DNA of 64,000 bases from assembly GCA_963710605.1 (NCBI GenBank), contig CAVQBA010000001.1, positions 1-64,000 on the forward strand, read 5' to 3'. Positions 1 to 7,621 of the stretch are shown here, one piece after another. The notes below the pieces were generated by a model that saw only the letters and a list, made by a program, of their open reading frames with translations, ran no database searches and had not been told where the DNA came from. This stretch comes from an uncultured cyanobacterium (GTDB taxonomy: Bacteria > Cyanobacteriota > Cyanobacteriia > Cyanobacteriales > Cyanobacteriaceae). The position numbers were made by a program, and so were the translations under genes. How positions within the stretch are numbered: the stretch's first letter is position 1; each line of letters begins with the position of its first letter.

Positions 1-93
1 ATCTGATACTAGTAATTTACACAACAATGATTTAAAGCACATTCATATAGTGTATATTTTACATAACAATAATTAACTTCTAAAATTATTCTA

Positions 94-1411
94 TCAGATG
101 TCTTTAAAGTTTCCTACAGATGGGTCAAAATTGACTTTACAAGTACCAGTTGAACCATTTCTATTCTTACCCACAATTATCTCCGTAACCCCTGTATCTT
201 TTGTATTTGAGTTATAGTATTCATCTCGGTAAAGAAGTAAACCTAAGTCCATATCCTGCTCTATATCCCCCGAATCTTTAATATCACCCATAGAAGGGCG
301 TTTATTGCTTTGCCCTTCAACTCCTCGGTTTATTTGGGCTAAAACGATAAAAGGAACATCAAACATTTTAGCGATGTCTTTACACGCTCCTGAATATTTA
401 CCAATAGCTTGAGATCTATTCCTGCACTTCTATCCCCTAATTTTTGGATATAATCTAATACGACTAAACCTATTTCTCCCTTTTCGGGGGCAACTGTATG
501 CCACGTAATACAGAACGCATTTTGGCAGGAGTTAATTGACTTGCAGGAGTATCATCAATAATTATTGGTAGTTGTGACACCTGCTCTAACGAAGATACTA
601 AAAGCTCATATTCTTCTTCATAAATTTGATTGTGTATCAGTCGATGAGAATCAATACCTGTGTGCATTGAAAGAAATCTTTTAGTCAACTGTTCGTGACT
701 CATCTCCGCACTAAAGATTACTACGGTTTGTGTTCTTTGGTACAATATAATTAGCAAAGTAACAACCAAGCCAACTTTTCCCCATAGATGGTATTTTTTT
801 TTAACCACAATCAAATCTTGTTTTATCAAACCGCCAATCAGTTGGTCAAGATTACTCAGTCCAGTAGAATAGGCATTCCTTGCTCCATCGCTAATTTTAC
901 CCAAGACTTCAATTAAACTATCACCAATAGATTTAGGGTCAAATCTACCTGTTTTCTTAGTAGTTATATCAAACAACTTCTGTTCGCTACTATCAAAGAC
1001 TGTTTCTAAATTGGCAGAAGTATCACTGGCTAGTTCAACTATTTCTTGTCCTGTTTGTCGCAATAAACGGCGTTGATACTTATTCATTACTAACTCAACA
1101 TAATGTTGAGCTGTTTTAGATGTTACTGTAGAATCTAATAATTGAGTTAACTTGAGAGTACCACCAACAGAATCTAAAAGATTATGGTCTTGTAACCAAG
1201 TGCTGATAGTAGTTAAATCAGTCGGTTTGTTTTGACGATATATTTCTAGAGCAAATTCATAAATCTTTTGATGAGCAGAAAGGGAAAAAGCATCGGCAGG
1301 AAGCTGTGATGCAATTAAACCGATAATTTTTGGGTCAAATAGAATACTACCAAGAATTTGTTCTTCGGCTTCTATATTTGCTAGGAGCTTATTTTGATTA
1401 ATCGTCTTCAT
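94..1411 (-). pseudogene. dnaB: DnaB-family replicative helicase (element-encoded), split by about four frameshifts; real decay or sequencing error
   Basis: N-terminal NIEAEEQILGSIL. Walker A remnant PSMGKS and VVLDYIQ in shifted frames; FSAEMS; C-terminal LAQINR..RPSMGDIKDSGDIEQDMD..GKNRNG. ORFs 470..1411 and 94..366 join into one protein. Confidence 0.85.
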
Positions 1412-2252
1412 TACGGAATAAGTTACTAAGGGCTTTTAATTTATCGTTGCTAATTAATTTTTGGTCAGAAGGAGTTGATTTACTGACTATTTGTTGATGT
1501 TCGGGTTTGGTAACTTCAGGTGTAGATGATTGGTGATTCCATCCTTCTTTAATCGCTTTGTTTAACCATCCCCCTGCGTTACTAACCTTGGACTGTGCTA
1601 ATTGTTCCTTCAAGGCAGAAATAGCTTCTAATACTTGTTGCTCTTCTGCTTGTTTGATAGTTTTTTTTAAAGTGGGATTAAGTTTAACACCTAATTCTTT
1701 TAGCTCCTTTTCAATTGAAACAGTAGAAGTTTGAGGTGGACTTGTCAAAGGAGGAACTTTAGTCATACGACTAATGGGGATAACTTTTTCTGCTATCTCT
1801 TGTTCTTTAACTTTAGTAAGTAGTCGTTCATTTTCTTTTTGTAATCTTTCTACTTGGTCTTGTAGTTGATAGACTCGATATACTTGTCCTGCAAGAGCTT
1901 CATTCTTTTTCTTTAGTTCTTTGTTTTCATTTTCTACCCGTTTGAGTCGCTCTTGTAACTTCGTGATGATTTTACCTTGGGCGGTAGAATTAGGTTTATT
2001 GAGCGGTTTAACAGGCATAGAATTTTGTTGACTACGAAGTTCTGCCACTCGTTGCTTCAACTCAGGATATTTATATAAATAACTCACACTGACTTGGGCT
2101 TCTCTGGCTACAGTGGCAAAGTTAATCTTGGCATTGATTTTGAGTAACTTTTCTATTGCTTCATGAACACGATTACGGGATTCTTCTTTTCTTTTCTCCT
2201 GAGTGGATTTAAGGGTTTCAATTAGTTGTTCTCTAATATCAAAGTCTGCCAT
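1398..2252 (-). CDS. Tn554 TnpC / DUF6262-like protein with coiled coil and extra C-terminal domain
   Basis: AIEKL..KINFATVAREAQVSVSYLY..ELKQRV HTH-like motif, then a long coiled coil; located after the recombinases. Confidence 0.75.
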   Translation of the reverse strand: MADFDIREQLIETLKSTQEKRKEESRNRVHEAIEKLLKINAKINFATVAREAQVSVSYLYKYPELKQRVAELRSQQNSMPVKPLNKPNSTAQGKIITKLQERLKRVENENKELKKKNEALAGQVYRVYQLQDQVERLQKENERLLTKVKEQEIAEKVIPISRMTKVPPLTSPPQTSTVSIEKELKELGVKLNPTLKKTIKQAEEQQVLEAISALKEQLAQSKVSNAGGWLNKAIKEGWNHQSSTPEVTKPEHQQIVSKSTPSDQKLISNDKLKALSNLFRNEDD

Positions 2253-4237
2253 TATGCTACCTCGTGTTGTAATGACTGAATAATCTTGTTAAGGGTGTCG
2301 GCTTGTCTGCCAAACTGCTCGACTAAAACATTTTGCCCATTGGCATTAGCTGTAGATTGTTTTTTCCTTAGCTCATCTCTAACTTTGATATATTGGTCAA
2401 GTTTATCGGGAGTAGCGACAAAATGATTGCAAGTATAACAAGCTCTGAACTTATGACAATCTTGGTCTAAATCCAGTCCACAATAACCATAAATGGGCGT
2501 GTTAATATGTGTTCCAGAGAGTTCTAACTTATGAGCAGTAGGATTATCCCAGAACGATTTAGGGAAGGATTCATAAGGTACTTGTTTACCTTCTGCATTA
2601 ACTAAGGCTTTTTGAATATGTCCTGCTTCTTTATTAATGAGTTCACAACTAACTTTGGTATAGTAAGTGCTAGTGGTAGCAAAATGTTTATGTCCTGCCC
2701 ATGCACTCACTACCGCTAAATCATGTCCTTGTTCAAAAAGATTAGTTAAGCGAGTAGAACGTAATATTTTGTTTATAAAGGTTGCTAGTTGTCCATTTTC
2801 ATCTCGGATGTCTAAAGTAGTAATTAGAGTTCTTATACTTTTCATTAATGGATGTGAATCATTACTTTGTACAACCTTCTTAACAGGTACTAGATTAGGT
2901 TGAGATGCTTTTGTTGAAGATAGACCGTGATAATGACAGAACAAATAATCATATTCATCCCCCCATAGATTTTTAACATAATCTAGCTGTTCTTGAACAA
3001 CTTTGGCGATAGTTCTACTAATAGGTATTTCATGGTAATCTTTATTTTTTGGTCTGTACCAACGTAGTTTCCAATATTGTCCTTCTTGTATTAAACAATC
3101 CTGTTTGAGTTGAGCTAGTTCAGATGGACGCATTGCTCCAAAATAGCAGATTAGATATATTCGAGCGATGGGGTCTGGTAAAATATGTAAATTGGCTTCT
3201 ATTTGCTCTGTAACTTTTTGTGATAGGGGATCTGGATTGCCTCGGCGACGTTTAGGATAGTCTTCATCTCGAATAATATCTTGGTCAATATCAAACCAAC
3301 CCTTAACTGTACCCACAAAGAAAAAATCTCTTAATGGAGTTAACTTGGATTTAGTAACTTTTTTCTCTTTTGATAGGTAGTCAAGAAAAACTGTACGATT
3401 AATCTGTTCAAAATCACTAATAGCAGTAGTTTGTAAGTAAATAGATAATGAGCGGAAGGCGACTAGAACATGGTTGATTGTTCCAAAAGCCTTTTCTATT
3501 TTGCATAAATGTTCGACATACTGCTTAGCTTTGTCTTTCAACCATTGTTGCTTAATCTGACTGAAGTTAGCGATGGAATGTGTTAAATTTTTTGGGTTGT
3601 AGTTGAGATTAAGGTTTCTCAAATCCCATCGCTCATCTTGCCATTGAAATGGTTTTATATGTCTGTCTTGTTGTGTGAAATAACTTAAATTTACTTGATT
3701 TAACTCAATATAATCGTATTGAGTTTTACGACAACTTCGACAACTAAATGTCTTTTTGTTTTGCTTATTAATTCCTGCAATATACATATCCATTGCATTA
3801 CATTCAGGACAAACAAAGCCTTCTATCCTATGATTCCGATACCAGACCACACCTTTATTCGTTGGGTCTTCAATGGCTTCATAACCACCTTTGATATTGC
3901 ATGAATCCTGCTGTATTTTTTGGCAGTGAGGACATCGAAATTGCCTTTTATTATTGGGTTGCTTAATTCCTCCTACTACCATTCCTAAATGATTACATTC
4001 AGGGCAGATAAACTCACCGTGATAGTCTTGTCCCCAATCAACCTGTTCATCAATCAATCTATCTGTTAAATAACGAGAACGATTGTTCAAATTAATTGAA
4101 GAAACGACTGAACCTCTGCAATTTGAGCATCGAAATTGTTGCTTACCATTATTCAGCCCCCCTAATTTCAAAGGCATTTCATTGCATTTAGGGCAGATAA
4201 ATTCTCCTTGATAGTCTTGTTTCCAATTAATTTCCAT
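2252..4237 (-). CDS. Tyrosine recombinase (Tn554 TnpB-like) with three N-terminal zinc-ribbon repeats
   Basis: GAMRPSE, KILR, AGH..TYY; C-terminal GYC..C..ACYTC motif. The ATG at 4237 overlaps the upstream stop and is a likelier start than 4270. Confidence 0.85.
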   Translation of the reverse strand: MEINWKQDYQGEFICPKCNEMPLKLGGLNNGKQQFRCSNCRGSVVSSINLNNRSRYLTDRLIDEQVDWGQDYHGEFICPECNHLGMVVGGIKQPNNKRQFRCPHCQKIQQDSCNIKGGYEAIEDPTNKGVVWYRNHRIEGFVCPECNAMDMYIAGINKQNKKTFSCRSCRKTQYDYIELNQVNLSYFTQQDRHIKPFQWQDERWDLRNLNLNYNPKNLTHSIANFSQIKQQWLKDKAKQYVEHLCKIEKAFGTINHVLVAFRSLSIYLQTTAISDFEQINRTVFLDYLSKEKKVTKSKLTPLRDFFFVGTVKGWFDIDQDIIRDEDYPKRRRGNPDPLSQKVTEQIEANLHILPDPIARIYLICYFGAMRPSELAQLKQDCLIQEGQYWKLRWYRPKNKDYHEIPISRTIAKVVQEQLDYVKNLWGDEYDYLFCHYHGLSSTKASQPNLVPVKKVVQSNDSHPLMKSIRTLITTLDIRDENGQLATFINKILRSTRLTNLFEQGHDLAVVSAWAGHKHFATTSTYYTKVSCELINKEAGHIQKALVNAEGKQVPYESFPKSFWDNPTAHKLELSGTHINTPIYGYCGLDLDQDCHKFRACYTCNHFVATPDKLDQYIKVRDELRKKQSTANANGQNVLVEQFGRQADTLNKIIQSLQHEVA

Positions 4238-5717
4238 TACTGTTGCCCTCCAACCCTTGAATACGAACAATTAATCTTTCTTTATCATCGGTAAGTCCTT
4301 TACTTTGTCTAACTAAACCCAAATTAGTAGCTATCTCCAATTCCTCATCTATTCTCTGTAAGTCTTGTTTGAGGTAGTTTAGGTCATCCGTGGAAGTGAG
4401 CCAATGTTCACATTGCCAACAAGCATTAACAGTTTGACAGGGTGATTTTAAAACAGGGCGATGACATTCCCCATAGTTCGTCGTTACCTGATACATTTTT
4501 CTTCGCATTAACTCAGTAATAACATTTTTGGGTTTATGTTCTTTTACTATCTTTCCTGTACTGTCAACGTACTTTGTACTCTGCATTAATTCCTGATACT
4601 CTTCTCCCACTACCTCCTTAAGTAAATGTTTGTAGTAGTTCTGCATATCGGGAGAACGGTGACGTAGATACTTTTGAATAATTAAGTCTCTTACTCCTGC
4701 ATTAGTCATTACCGTTGCCACAGTCTTTCTGAATTGGTGAGAACGAAAATGCCAAAGATTTCCTTCTTTTGTACAGATATTTTGTTCCTCTGCCAGTTTA
4801 TTAAGCCAACGACTAAAGCCATCTACTTTCATTATTCTAGGAGCAGGGTTATATTTTCCAAATATACCATCGTTGCTACCGAACAGATTATGATAAGTAT
4901 CACCAAAGTGTTCTCGAATAAAATCTTGTTGTTCTTTAATAACGGCTACAAGTTCTTCACAGATAGGTAATTCATCCTCTGTCTTATACTTTTCTGTCAG
5001 AAATCTCAACCGCCATTCACTCCCTCTCTTACGTAAACAGTCTAAAGGTAAATTCAGTAGTTCTCCTATGCGTAATCCTGTTGCTCGAATGATTAACACC
5101 ATTCTCTGCTTTGGTGAGGGAAGCAAATGCAAGTGTTCATCTAGCTGTTGCCATACTTCTTCGGGGATGTATTCTACTTCGTCATTCTTTGCTTGAGAAC
5201 CATGATACTTACCTTTAAACCAATAAGTATTGACATCCAACCAACCTTCTTGCCGACAAAGGTTAAAGAAGTTGATCAATGTCATATAACGTAAAGAGAT
5301 ACTTCTTTGGGATAAAGGTTTTTTTGTCTGTTTGCTTTTCGTTGAATGTAAGTAGTAATCGTATTCATCTAATAGTTGTTCATTGATATCTTCTACACTA
5401 TAAACAGACTTAGTTTTCAAAAAGATAGAGAACTCCCTCAAAGAAGCAACATCATTCTTTAGATACATTGCCGAATAATTACGTTTAGCCCGAATCAATA
5501 TGTAGAGCTTAGTCAGCAGCTTCAACCAATCTTGTTGAATTTTATCAAATCTAATAGTTAAAACTTTTTGATGTTGATTCACACTTAACCCCAAATCTTC
5601 AATGGTTCGCCAAACATCTTTTTGTAGCAAAGGATTATTTAATAACTCTCTAGCAGACTCATTCTGTTCTACTAACCATAACTCAGGTTGGCTATTCCAA
5701 TCTGGTATTGCATTCAT
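4227..5717 (-). CDS. Tyrosine recombinase (Tn554 TnpB-like)
   Basis: TGLRIGE, HQFR, LRHRSPDMQNYY catalytic set; C-terminal GEC..C..ACWQC motif. Confidence 0.9.
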   Translation of the reverse strand: MNAIPDWNSQPELWLVEQNESARELLNNPLLQKDVWRTIEDLGLSVNQHQKVLTIRFDKIQQDWLKLLTKLYILIRAKRNYSAMYLKNDVASLREFSIFLKTKSVYSVEDINEQLLDEYDYYLHSTKSKQTKKPLSQRSISLRYMTLINFFNLCRQEGWLDVNTYWFKGKYHGSQAKNDEVEYIPEEVWQQLDEHLHLLPSPKQRMVLIIRATGLRIGELLNLPLDCLRKRGSEWRLRFLTEKYKTEDELPICEELVAVIKEQQDFIREHFGDTYHNLFGSNDGIFGKYNPAPRIMKVDGFSRWLNKLAEEQNICTKEGNLWHFRSHQFRKTVATVMTNAGVRDLIIQKYLRHRSPDMQNYYKHLLKEVVGEEYQELMQSTKYVDSTGKIVKEHKPKNVITELMRRKMYQVTTNYGECHRPVLKSPCQTVNACWQCEHWLTSTDDLNYLKQDLQRIDEELEIATNLGLVRQSKGLTDDKERLIVRIQGLEGNSNGN

Positions 5718-6799
5718 TCTTCTTCCTCCTGTTCGATTACTCTTCGTAAGTCTGCTTCTTCAATCACATGAGAATACACATCTAACGTCGTTTGAATACT
5801 GGCGTGTCCTAATAAATATTTGACTCTATCAGGAGAATAACCTGCTTTGAGCAAACGAGTGGCATAAGTATGACGAAATAAATGGGCATAAACCTTGATT
5901 CCCGTTTTTTGGGATAATCGAGTAAACATGACACTCAAAACATCAGGACTGATGGGCTTACCTATTTCTCCTTCCCAAATATTGATAAATACGTACTCTG
6001 ACTCTATTTCAGGATATTCATAAAGCAGATAATCGTTGTACATTTGGATTAGCTCTGGTATGACAGGAATCGTTCGTTCTTGCCCTTTAGCCAAAGCACC
6101 ATTTGGGTTATCTTTTCTTTTTACTACTTTAATGTAGTTTTCTCCAAAATCACTCACATCCTCATGTTTTAGACCTAGTATTTCTCCTTTACGCATTCCC
6201 GTACCATTAAGCATAAGGATAATCAACTTGTCTCTTAAACGATTACAGGCATTGACCAATACTTCTACCTGCTCATCTGTTAAGCATCCTGCAAACTTTT
6301 TCTTGCCTTTGAGCTTAACTAATTTTTGACGAACGGGCTTAGTTTTAGCAATACCTGTGAGTAGTCCTTTACTACTTCTGTTTGTGATGCCATAGGGTAA
6401 ATGAAATCTGTCGAACTGTTTGAAGTCCACAGTCTTGTTGGCAATATGATATTCGTAAAACTGTGTTACCCCCGTAATCATACGATTAACGGTACTTTCA
6501 CTTCTAATGGCTTCTATTCCTTGTAGATTGATGACAGCTTTATCTCCAACTCTGAGCCAGTGAGCATAGTTTTCTAAATCGGAGACATTTACTTCCCTCC
6601 AATCCAAACATTGTTGTTGAAGAAAAAGCCACCAGTATCTTAAATCGTGTCCATAAGATTTGATGGTATTAGGTGATTTGGTTGTAGTCATAAACGTCAA
6701 AAAACGTTGTATTGGTTCGACAATTTGATAGTCCTCATCAAACATCAACCAAACTGGTTCGTTTGTAACGGGATCTATTCCCTTTTGCAAAGACAACAT
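5714..6799 (-). CDS. Tyrosine recombinase (Tn554 TnpA-like)
   Basis: SPNTIKSYGHDL, GMRKGE, HLFRHTYAT, LLGHASIQTTLDVYSH. Confidence 0.9.
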   Translation of the reverse strand: MLSLQKGIDPVTNEPVWLMFDEDYQIVEPIQRFLTFMTTTKSPNTIKSYGHDLRYWWLFLQQQCLDWREVNVSDLENYAHWLRVGDKAVINLQGIEAIRSESTVNRMITGVTQFYEYHIANKTVDFKQFDRFHLPYGITNRSSKGLLTGIAKTKPVRQKLVKLKGKKKFAGCLTDEQVEVLVNACNRLRDKLIILMLNGTGMRKGEILGLKHEDVSDFGENYIKVVKRKDNPNGALAKGQERTIPVIPELIQMYNDYLLYEYPEIESEYVFINIWEGEIGKPISPDVLSVMFTRLSQKTGIKVYAHLFRHTYATRLLKAGYSPDRVKYLLGHASIQTTLDVYSHVIEEADLRRVIEQEEEE

Positions 6800-6904
6800 A
6801 AACTTTACACAATGAAGAAATATATGTATAAGCTTAACATGTTATTAGGTAAAAAAAAGGGGTCTTTGTTGTTGTTGTTTATTATTAAATATTTGTATTG
6901 TATA

Positions 6905-7528
6905 ACCCATATCTAACCCAATCATTTTCTTTGTTTGAGGTAGTTCTGGGGTTATATCTCTTACGTCTAGCTTCAAGCAAAACTGAGAATAATAGCCGTC
7001 GCTTCTCCTAACAATACGGACTCTTTGTATTTGGAATTCTTGGAAATAAAATAAATCTCTCGAACCAATTAACTTTAGAGTACCGATATTGTTACCGTCT
7101 GTGAAGGTTATTCTTTTGTTGTCTCTATCTAACTTCCATCCTGACTTTTTCAACTCGATACTTCGTGTTCGCTTAGAAAACTGAGGATAACCCGCTTGGT
7201 GCGCGTTCCCTTGCGCCTGTCGGCGGCGCGGGGTCGCATCCGCTTTCTTCCCTTTTATGTCTTTTTTACAATTATCATAAAATTTGGCAATTGCCGACCA
7301 TGCTCTTTCTCCAGCTTGTTGACACGCTGTTGAATTTAATTGTTTGACAAAAGAAAACTCTTTTCTCAAATCTGTAGTATGACGATAAATATCTTTTTTG
7401 CCTACTCCTCTTAAGTCCATCCATAAACGAATACATTTATTACGCACGAACTTTACGGTACGAATACCTTCGTCGATTGCTTTAAATTGTTCTGGCTTTC
7501 CTTTTAATTTGTATTCTAATAAAAACAT
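6905..7528 (-). pseudogene. tnpB: IS605-family RNA-guided nuclease TnpB, truncated at RuvC-I (IGLDMG), with a 17-codon in-frame insert
   Basis: EYKLKGK..AIDEGIRT..FVRNKC..LNSTACQ..ERAW..GYPQF..ELKKSGWKL..GTLKLIG..VRIVRRSDGYY..IGLDMG. The following codons (YTIQIFNNKQQQQ...) are non-homologous read-through. Confidence 0.9.
7193..7243 (-). repeat. ~50-bp GC-rich structured dispersed repeat (SDR-like) inserted in frame in tnpB
   Basis: Aligns with the copies at 33396 and 48705; separates KGKK from GYP. Confidence 0.75.
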
Positions 7529-7621
7529 TTTACGCTTTTAACTACCGCATAAAACATTTTACCATACAGTTAGAAAAGTCGTCTTGAAAGACGAGGCTTT
7601 ATACCCAAAAGTTTTGGTAAA

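Follow-up and report, generated by a model that had tools for sequence, protein, structure and literature searches.

A 6.9-kb cyanobacterial Tn554-family transposon with three tyrosine recombinases, an extended TnpC and a gene for a DnaB-family helicase

Introduction

What is a gene for a DnaB-family helicase doing at the end of a transposon operon? The question is raised by the beginning of a 64,000-nucleotide stretch of DNA (the window), which is the start of contig CAVQBA010000001.1 (C1) in the assembly GCA_963710605.1 of an uncultured cyanobacterium of the Cyanobacteriaceae (3.93 Mb, 7 contigs, 84.88% complete). Window 1-6913 is confirmed as one copy of a discrete mobile element. We consider it very probable that this element belongs to the Tn554 family, as a cargo-free transposon of 6.9 kb that inserts with site and orientation specificity and combines one TnpA-like recombinase and two TnpB-like ones with an extended TnpC and a DnaB-family helicase.

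How Tn554 and its multi-recombinase relatives, the integrative elements that circularize with a strand bias (SEs) and the GInts, move is a standing question on which the element bears. According to the accessible text of the sources used here, Tn554 requires TnpA, TnpB and TnpC, the route of its transposition is unsettled, and replication-dependent copy-out is only a model.

Gene layout

The features of the copy in the window (copy A) are as follows; YR denotes tyrosine recombinase, ORF open reading frame and E the expectation value, and domain calls are Pfam and NCBIfam profile matches.

1..6913, minus strand: whole element, copy A; the tnpA-side (left) end lies at 6909-6913 and the dnaB-side (right) end at window 1, the contig start
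5714..6799, minus strand: YR1, TnpA-like tyrosine recombinase of 361 residues; Phage_integrase and Phage_int_SAM_1
4227..5717, minus strand: YR2, TnpB-like tyrosine recombinase of 496 residues with a C-terminal four-cysteine cluster; Phage_integrase and Phage_int_SAM_5
2252..4237, minus strand: YR3, second TnpB-like recombinase, 661 residues from the ATG at 4237, with N-terminal zinc ribbons; Phage_integrase and the Zn_ribbon_InsA, IS1595 and IS1_IS1595_Zn models
1398..2252, minus strand: extended TnpC-like protein of 284 residues; DUF6262 at E 1e-12
470..1411, minus strand: N-terminal part of dnaB, an ORF of 313 residues; DnaB and DnaB_C, TIGR00665 positions 4-301
94..429, minus strand: C-terminal part of dnaB in another frame (listed ORF 94-366, frame open to 429); TIGR00665 positions 322-433 for frame 97-429
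6800..6913, minus strand: left non-coding end, with the motif AATAATAAACAACAACAACAAAG at 6864-6886 and the 9-mer TTGTGTAAA at 6804-6812
1..93, minus strand: right non-coding end, downstream of dnaB, with the second TTGTGTAAA at 16-24
6845..7620, minus strand: target, an IS200/IS605-type element of which this is the 5' half, its tnpB being interrupted by the transposon; NF040570 guided_TnpB positions 2-205 of 389

An earlier note, made from the sequence of the window, had described five minus-strand ORFs chained by four overlaps, and all of these are present, with the overlap sequences read as follows. YR1 and YR2 share the 4 bp ATGA (5714-5717), and YR2 and YR3 share the 11 bp ATGGAAATTAA, given a YR3 start at ATG 4237, TTG 4270 being open as well. 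The overlap between YR3 and tnpC is 1 bp at 2252, within TAATG, and that between tnpC and dnaB is the 14 bp ATGAAGACGATTAA (1398-1411). The domains assigned in the same note likewise stand, the profile matches being Phage_integrase for all three recombinases, with zinc ribbons in YR3, DUF6262 for the protein in fourth place and DnaB plus DnaB_C for the fifth.

Two copies and the ends of the element

A second copy of window 1-6913 (copy B) is found at C5:328357-332074 and C2:1-3410 with 98.3-99.8% identity to copy A. It is split across the end of C5 and the start of C2, and the two pieces overlap by 220 bp. The alignment of the two copies has 68 differing columns, many of them small indels in clustered patches. 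On the tnpA side the similarity ends at window 6909-6913 and is followed by different flanking DNA; the earlier note was right to mark out a discrete element, but its end at 6904 falls 5-9 bp short of this position. The right end was taken from copy B only, because the window begins at that end with the start of the contig.

A single paralogous gene on C6 is matched by the C5 and the C2 flank of copy B alike; their 18 and 35 bp at the junction add up to 53 bp, the length of the corresponding stretch in the paralogue. Joined in silico, these flanks give a single tnpB frame of 345 residues, of which 335 align to the paralogous TnpB at 73% identity with 0 gaps, the junction falling at residue 201. 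Since the flanks rejoin into one ungapped tnpB frame, the element includes dnaB, as had been supposed, with 93 bp separating the dnaB stop codon from the end. There is no evident target duplication at the copy B insertion, and, as GAT and TGGG are present in target and element alike, neither end can be placed to better than a few bases. Copy A interrupts another tnpB, uninterrupted copies of which are located at C6:583043-584435 and C6:940906. The other half of the tnpB at copy A was not found in this assembly, which is 84.88% complete, and no truncated tnpB half was seen there.

A non-mobile explanation, in terms of segmental duplication or a contig-end assembly artefact, would be favored by the contact of both copies with contig ends and by the many small indels that distinguish them. 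This is exceedingly improbable given that the two copies have different flanks, that the flanks of copy B rejoin exactly, that the target of copy A is intact elsewhere, and that the same unit is repeated, as 6.75-kb copies, in another genome and is found again on a finished plasmid.

Descent of the recombinases

For reference we used a fexA element borne by a Staphylococcus plasmid; its genes encode 361, 637 and 121 residues, and RefSeq annotates the last product as a DUF6262 family protein. From its layout we take this element to be Tn558, a name that no record consulted gives, and refer to it as Tn558-like. YR1 is 36.6% identical to the Tn558-like TnpA over 352 residues (E 1.7e-79), each protein having 361 residues. 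YR2 and YR3 match the Tn558-like TnpB, at 27% over 473 residues (E 1.4e-38) and 24.6% over 491 residues (E 2e-22), respectively, and are 25% identical to one another. The gene order tnpA, tnpB, tnpC is common to the two elements.

Catalytic positions were assigned by eye on alignments of 14 sequences per recombinase. The conserved residues are R203, K238, H306, R309, H332 and Y342 in YR1, R216, K243, H327, R330, H353 and Y362 in YR2, and R370, K397, R493, R496, H516 and Y526 in YR3, so that the R..K..(H/R)xxR..H..Y positions are kept in all three recombinases. The C-terminal four-cysteine columns of YR2 (C418, C427, C433, C436) and YR3 (C586, C594, C600, C603) are conserved with the Tn558-like TnpB. 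A sequence search with YR3 against PDB chains gave no match.

Together with the TnpC match described below, these similarities make the element a member of the Tn554 family with an old duplication of tnpB. A hybrid origin from Tn554 and RIT elements, the interpretation offered in the earlier note, was rejected, the extra recombinase being a second TnpB paralogue.

Recurrence in cyanobacteria

In a large protein collection the TnpC-like protein has 444 relatives at E <= 0.001, which are cyanobacterial wherever the source is named. We assembled 52 loci, 51 from a scan of one genome per species plus a locus on a Chondrocystis plasmid (L062), holding 55 TnpC-like genes. In 35 of the 55 dnaB lies directly downstream; the remaining genes comprise 8 scorable ones without dnaB (full-length TnpC and at least 700 bp of downstream sequence), 8 that are unscorable and 4 that are short or masked and were dropped. 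The predicted association of such recombinase clusters with dnaB is thus upheld in this sample. The complete order YR1-YR2-YR3-TnpC-DnaB, whose recurrence had been predicted as well, is found in 24 copies besides the window, and four further copies have two recombinases, TnpC and DnaB. Two Waterburya copies have a common 6,753-bp repeat that contains only the five genes, and a sister Waterburya lineage has a common 8.9-kb unit that includes an extra ORF of 453 residues. When the phylum was sampled evenly, 9 of 401 genomes, the present one included, gave a TnpC match at E <= 1e-15, against 0 of the 6 genomes of the same family.

Some of these loci show additional features. In the 8.9-kb Waterburya lineage (L015, L018-L021; 5270-5635, 12265-13623) the 453-residue ORF follows dnaB and has a weak HATPase_c_3 match, and at L015, L018 and L021, whose flanks were scanned, the unit is embedded in a gene of the 23S_rRNA_IVP (four-helix-bundle) family. 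At L013 5599-12161 a two-recombinase element with its own dnaB sits in the dnaB of a three-recombinase element, and nested or side-by-side family elements also occur at L024, L033, L037 and L061. The Chondrocystis plasmid copy (AP018282.1 64993-84066) has another transposase pair inserted between YR2 and YR3, and its dnaB was annotated by the depositors as two pieces.

The TnpC-like protein and the non-coding ends

The N-terminal 125 residues of the TnpC-like protein match the Tn558-like TnpC (35% over 122 residues, E 1.2e-15), and about 160 residues extend beyond it (284 versus 121 residues). An AlphaFold2 model with a mean predicted local distance difference test score of 73.9 features a helical N-terminal domain (3-78, DUF6262), a long helix modeled as a coiled coil (91-156), a small helical domain (177-236), a disordered segment (240-263) and a final helix (269-278). 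A fold search of the PDB with this model returned nothing at E 0.001 or better, the best hit having E 1.2. No replication-protein match emerged from fold and sequence searches of TnpC, a DnaD-like row at E 4.6 not being evidence.

A tail motif of the type KLxSxxKLKxLSxxF ends every TnpC that precedes dnaB, whereas all scorable TnpC proteins without dnaB end in a different and longer C-terminus, ..GEWxPFxxMxxxYPL... Tail and DnaB are both present in 36 cases and both absent in 8, with 0 discordant (44/44 scorable), a concordance suggestive of a link between the tail and the presence of DnaB. Three-recombinase sister elements without dnaB (L035, L036, L039-L045) have a TnpC with the longer C-terminus, and at L035 and L039 small ORFs without a Pfam family come after TnpC.

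The motif of the left non-coding end also occurs at the left ends of L062 and of the Waterburya copies L016 and L017. The 9-mer TTGTGTAAA has two occurrences in the element, one in each non-coding end and in direct orientation; chance alone is roughly estimated to give the ends a 9-mer in common about 1 time in 10, and more often in AT-rich DNA. No terminal inverted repeat of at least 8 nt is common to both ends. Between 1 and 7700 there are 22 promoter-like sites where 25.3 are expected and 4 terminator-like sites where 4.2 are expected, with no excess of either and no clear promoter in the left end.

These features bear on the possibility of a plasmid-like phase, in which, following ordinary excision, the circle would be kept for some time as a small replicon with TnpC as its origin-binding initiator or loader and DnaB as its helicase. 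The modeled helical N-terminal domain, coiled coil and tethered C-terminal helix of TnpC are consistent with such a role, and in a circle the two non-coding ends (~207 bp) would adjoin and share a 9-mer found nowhere else in the element. Other integrative elements also carry replication modules, for example tycheposons (accessible text of 10.1101/2020.12.28.424599). On the other hand, neither iterons nor DnaA boxes nor a Rep-type protein came to light, the shared 9-mer is a marginal match and TnpC lacks a replication-protein match (best E 1.2), so that we regard this explanation as rather unlikely.

The DnaB helicase

The dnaB gene of the window is spread over three frames, the third of which holds the stretch between the 470-1411 and 97-429 parts. 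Comparison with an intact relative and with copy B indicates that compensating indels scramble the Walker A region. The dnaB indels of the window are placed at about 418-489 and 718-801. The two pieces score 216 and 114 bits, below the TIGR00665 cut-off of 385.25, and the C-terminal part is 79% identical to the relative at L011. As assembled, the dnaB of copy A is broken, and this copy would therefore at best depend on a helicase supplied in trans.

From the 35 tnpC-dnaB pairs we picked 17 for close study. All 17 dnaB genes are open and encode 434-464 residues, and the overlap between tnpC and dnaB is the same 8 bp in 13 of the 17 pairs. The mean column identity of the 17 aligned proteins is 73%, with invariant Walker A, Walker B and C-terminal motifs, and they are better conserved than the recombinases. 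All three relatives tested pass TIGR00665, with 462-466 bits against the cut-off of 385.25 over positions 1-434 of 435. SPI-7-type island and phage DnaB proteins are likewise DnaB-family helicases encoded by mobile elements; the present ones differ in scoring below the cut-offs of both models (NF040583, 319-341 versus 655; TIGR03600, 374-377 versus 498.65) and above that for DnaB in general.

Among 1.84 billion representatives searched, the nearest other DnaB clusters are 41-50% identical and include long multi-stretch proteins, one of them named a cyanobacterial replicative helicase. A quick 64-row tree unites the 17 DnaBs of the elements in one group, with a support of 93 (Shimodaira-Hasegawa-like approximate likelihood ratio test). 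This group is separate from the long intein-type group that holds the chromosomal DnaB of this genome, to which the dnaB fragments of the window are 43-53% identical, so the tree comparison proposed in the earlier note sets the element proteins apart from the intein-bearing chromosomal ones. The chromosomal gene (L003, C1:153946-159555) has long inserts, presumably inteins, and reads as a frame of 1143 residues plus one of 238, that is, with a frame break in this assembly. The DnaBs of the two-recombinase elements nest among those of the three-recombinase elements, whereas their TnpAs fall outside the three-recombinase clade; this disagreement suggests exchange of the module between lineages.

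If dnaB were a passenger, it would be cargo that follows the TnpC-like gene and plays no part in transposition. GInt cargo begins at the stop codon of ginD, according to the accessible text of PMC5385486. Some relatives carry other genes after dnaB, such as the 453-residue HATPase_c_3 ORF in L018, and sister elements without DnaB exist. Yet apart from the recombination genes, dnaB is all that the 6.75-6.9-kb copies carry, the DnaBs of the elements make up one group that is better conserved than the recombinases and whose genes overlap tnpC, and the TnpC tail changes whenever DnaB is absent; a mere passenger is accordingly an improbable explanation of the gene.

Insertion targets

Copies A and B and the Chondrocystis plasmid copy follow tnpB codons that specify IGLDMG, LGVD(L)G and AGFDFG, and they share the orientation of the gene. 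The insertion point in these three copies is thus at the GxDxG codons of an IS200/IS605 tnpB, the target stretch in the present genome being GAT(A/T)TGGG; we take GxDxG to be the RuvC-I active-site motif. At copy A the reading frame of the tnpB fragment continues into the element as far as a stop at 6845. In two Waterburya copies the insertion comes after ..SAD and ..NAD of OrfB_IS605 proteins and is followed downstream by ..NIL.., a site that presumably corresponds to the RuvC-III motif. The two-recombinase elements L053 and L055 likewise split tnpB genes. As a universal target of the family tnpB was rejected, relatives also being found within 23S_rRNA_IVP genes, inside a gene for a Strawberry-notch-like helicase, adjacent to a gene for a C-5 methylase and in ORFs without a family.

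The hexamers at the junctions are GATATG and GATTTG on the left and GATAAC on the right of copy B. Their differences would fit the footprint rule described for Tn554 and the SEs, by which a 6-bp core travels from the previous site to the new right junction; the right flank of copy A is missing, and the crossover point is not fixed. DnaB is able to drive branch migration, and it could act as a recombination motor that drives branch migration or strand exchange through non-identical cores, rather than in replication. The difference between the cores (GATATG, GATTTG, GATAAC), and hence recombination across mismatched cores, would agree with this. Against such a motor, the DnaBs are full-length and of the cellular type, N-terminal domain included, and both Tn554 and the sister elements without DnaB recombine in its absence. 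We judge it unlikely.

The interrupted IS200/IS605-type element is about 1.4 kb long, encodes a TnpB of 420 residues and occurs in several copies (window 6845-7620, which is cut; C6:583043-584435; C6:940906-942047). A profile built from two seed TnpBs finds 27 TnpB-like ORFs in this genome. Beside copy B, C5:325850-326236 contains a dispersed repeat of ~50-150 bp that is present at dozens of sites on all large contigs with 80-100% identity and resembles a miniature repeat family.

Proposed mechanism

The best explanation of the locus as a whole is a Tn554-family transposon with a replication-linked helicase, to which we assign a probability of about 0.5. In this scheme the three recombinases, aided by TnpC, would exchange strands between the ends of the element and a short target that resembles the joined ends, here the GAT(A/T)TGGG that encodes GxDxG of an IS200/IS605 tnpB. 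The element DnaB would be made by translational coupling with TnpC, whose C-terminal tail may recruit it to a recombination intermediate or to the excised circle. Unwinding by DnaB would then allow the host replisome to copy the element, in a copy-out manner like that suggested for the related SEs, and the donor copy would be retained. The presence of two copies with different flanks in this genome supports the scheme. Copy-out replication, or replication of the excised circle, is the most likely role that we infer for the helicase, and as a sequence of steps the copy-out mechanism of recombinases, TnpC and DnaB has in our view slightly less than an even chance of being correct.

Several points weigh against this scheme. 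No initiator, loader, primase or origin was identified in the element, and its excision, circles and replication are predictions. The dnaB gene is broken in both copies of this genome, at different places; the breaks could be assembly error or decay. The 8 scorable sister elements without DnaB indicate that an own helicase gene is not obligatory for the family, and the fractions obtained from the 52 loci describe the sample and not population frequencies, the loci having been found through TnpC. The tail pattern was composed after sight of the sequences, and in the tree of the first 165 TnpC residues the independent contrasts between tail and DnaB number 1 on well-supported branches and 5 on the best tree. 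With few independent contrasts and a pattern written post hoc, the link between tail and DnaB is suggestive and not proven.

A more specific version is offered tentatively and with considerable doubt. The extended TnpC might be a dedicated adaptor, its N-terminal domain binding the ends and its tail loading the element's own DnaB at the junction made by the recombinases, and lineages of the family might home on codons for tnpB catalytic motifs (GxDxG of RuvC-I, AD of RuvC-III). If this were true, the element would be the first known tyrosine-recombinase transposon to bring its own helicase for copy-out replication, and members of the family would parasitize IS200/IS605 elements and inactivate the RNA-guided nuclease into whose gene they insert.

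A conserved and translationally coupled helicase in a natural branch of the Tn554 family amounts to genomic evidence for replication in the cycle, and the element offers a compact five-gene system in which the replication idea can be tested. The insertions at tnpB active-site codons give a further example of a mobile element that uses another as its target, here in genomes that abound in RNA-guided TnpB nucleases.

Comparison with known systems

Full-text literature searches gave no description of a Tn554-type module with DnaB, so that the architecture does not appear to be catalogued already; the supplementary tables of PMC5385486 and PMC10214605 lie outside that scope and may list cyanobacterial members. 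The accessible parts of PMC5385486, PMC10214605, PMC9345347, PMC8138268 (a recombinase classification) and 10.1101/2020.12.28.424599 likewise describe no such module, and those of PMC9881144 contain nothing relevant to the element. As background, the earlier note had set the two recombinases plus TnpC of Tn554 against the three recombinases without TnpC of RIT elements, neither with a replicative helicase in its core. To this must be added the GInts and SEs, both already recorded with three recombinase-like genes and a fourth that is TnpC-like (PMC5385486, PMC10214605, as far as their accessible text goes).

The tycheposons of Prochlorococcus resemble the element in being cyanobacterial, in integrating by a tyrosine recombinase and in having an optional small replication module that includes DnaB-type helicases; they differ in having one integrase, tRNA gene targets and cargo, and in lacking TnpB and TnpC (10.1101/2020.12.28.424599, accessible text). 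RIT elements also have three tyrosine recombinases, each with a catalytic tyrosine (Table 1 of PMC10214605, from its accessible text). Compared by description, RITs differ in having no TnpC-like protein, in their 34-bp terminal inverted repeats and in recombinases of 315-410 residues; the present element has a tnpC-like gene and dnaB, and no shared inverted repeat of at least 8 nt.

The GInts (ginABCD), as described in the accessible text of PMC5385486, likewise encode three recombinase-fold proteins and a small TnpC-like fourth in one operon at the 5' end, with the next gene beginning at the stop codon of the fourth; they insert site-specifically, and their excision yields circles. GinC is reported there to lack catalytic residues, whereas all three recombinases of the present element keep the arginines and the tyrosine. 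By the same description GInts are further set apart by 2.5-70 kb of cargo and by their occurrence in Proteobacteria and a few other phyla, a helicase not being described in that text. The SEs (intA-tfp-intB-srap) have an ordinary recombinase, a middle protein, a large recombinase and a small TnpC-like protein, and for them a replication-dependent, copy-out-like route has been proposed, with a 6-bp footprint as in Tn554; they differ in that Tfp has no catalytic motif, in being confined to Gammaproteobacteria and in having no helicase gene (PMC10214605, PMC9345347, accessible text of both). A four-gene module laid out like an SE or GInt, from a Pseudomonas plasmid, is much more remote than the Tn558-like element: it matches YR1 at 24.7% identity (E 8e-15) and the remaining proteins at E 0.005 or worse.

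The Tn554 family itself (Tn554, Tn558; Staphylococcus, Enterococcus) has the same TnpA-TnpB-TnpC order at one end with a DUF6262 protein as TnpC, and shares site- and orientation-specific insertion, no evident target duplication and a short variable core at the junctions. The present element differs in its second TnpB paralogue with N-terminal zinc ribbons, in a TnpC more than twice as long (284 versus 121 residues), in its DnaB gene and in having no resistance cargo. Its hosts are cyanobacteria, and its targets are multi-copy genes such as tnpB. A helicase as a conserved core gene is a new variation on the Tn554 kind of transposon, for which the copy-out scheme above is the mechanism that we propose.

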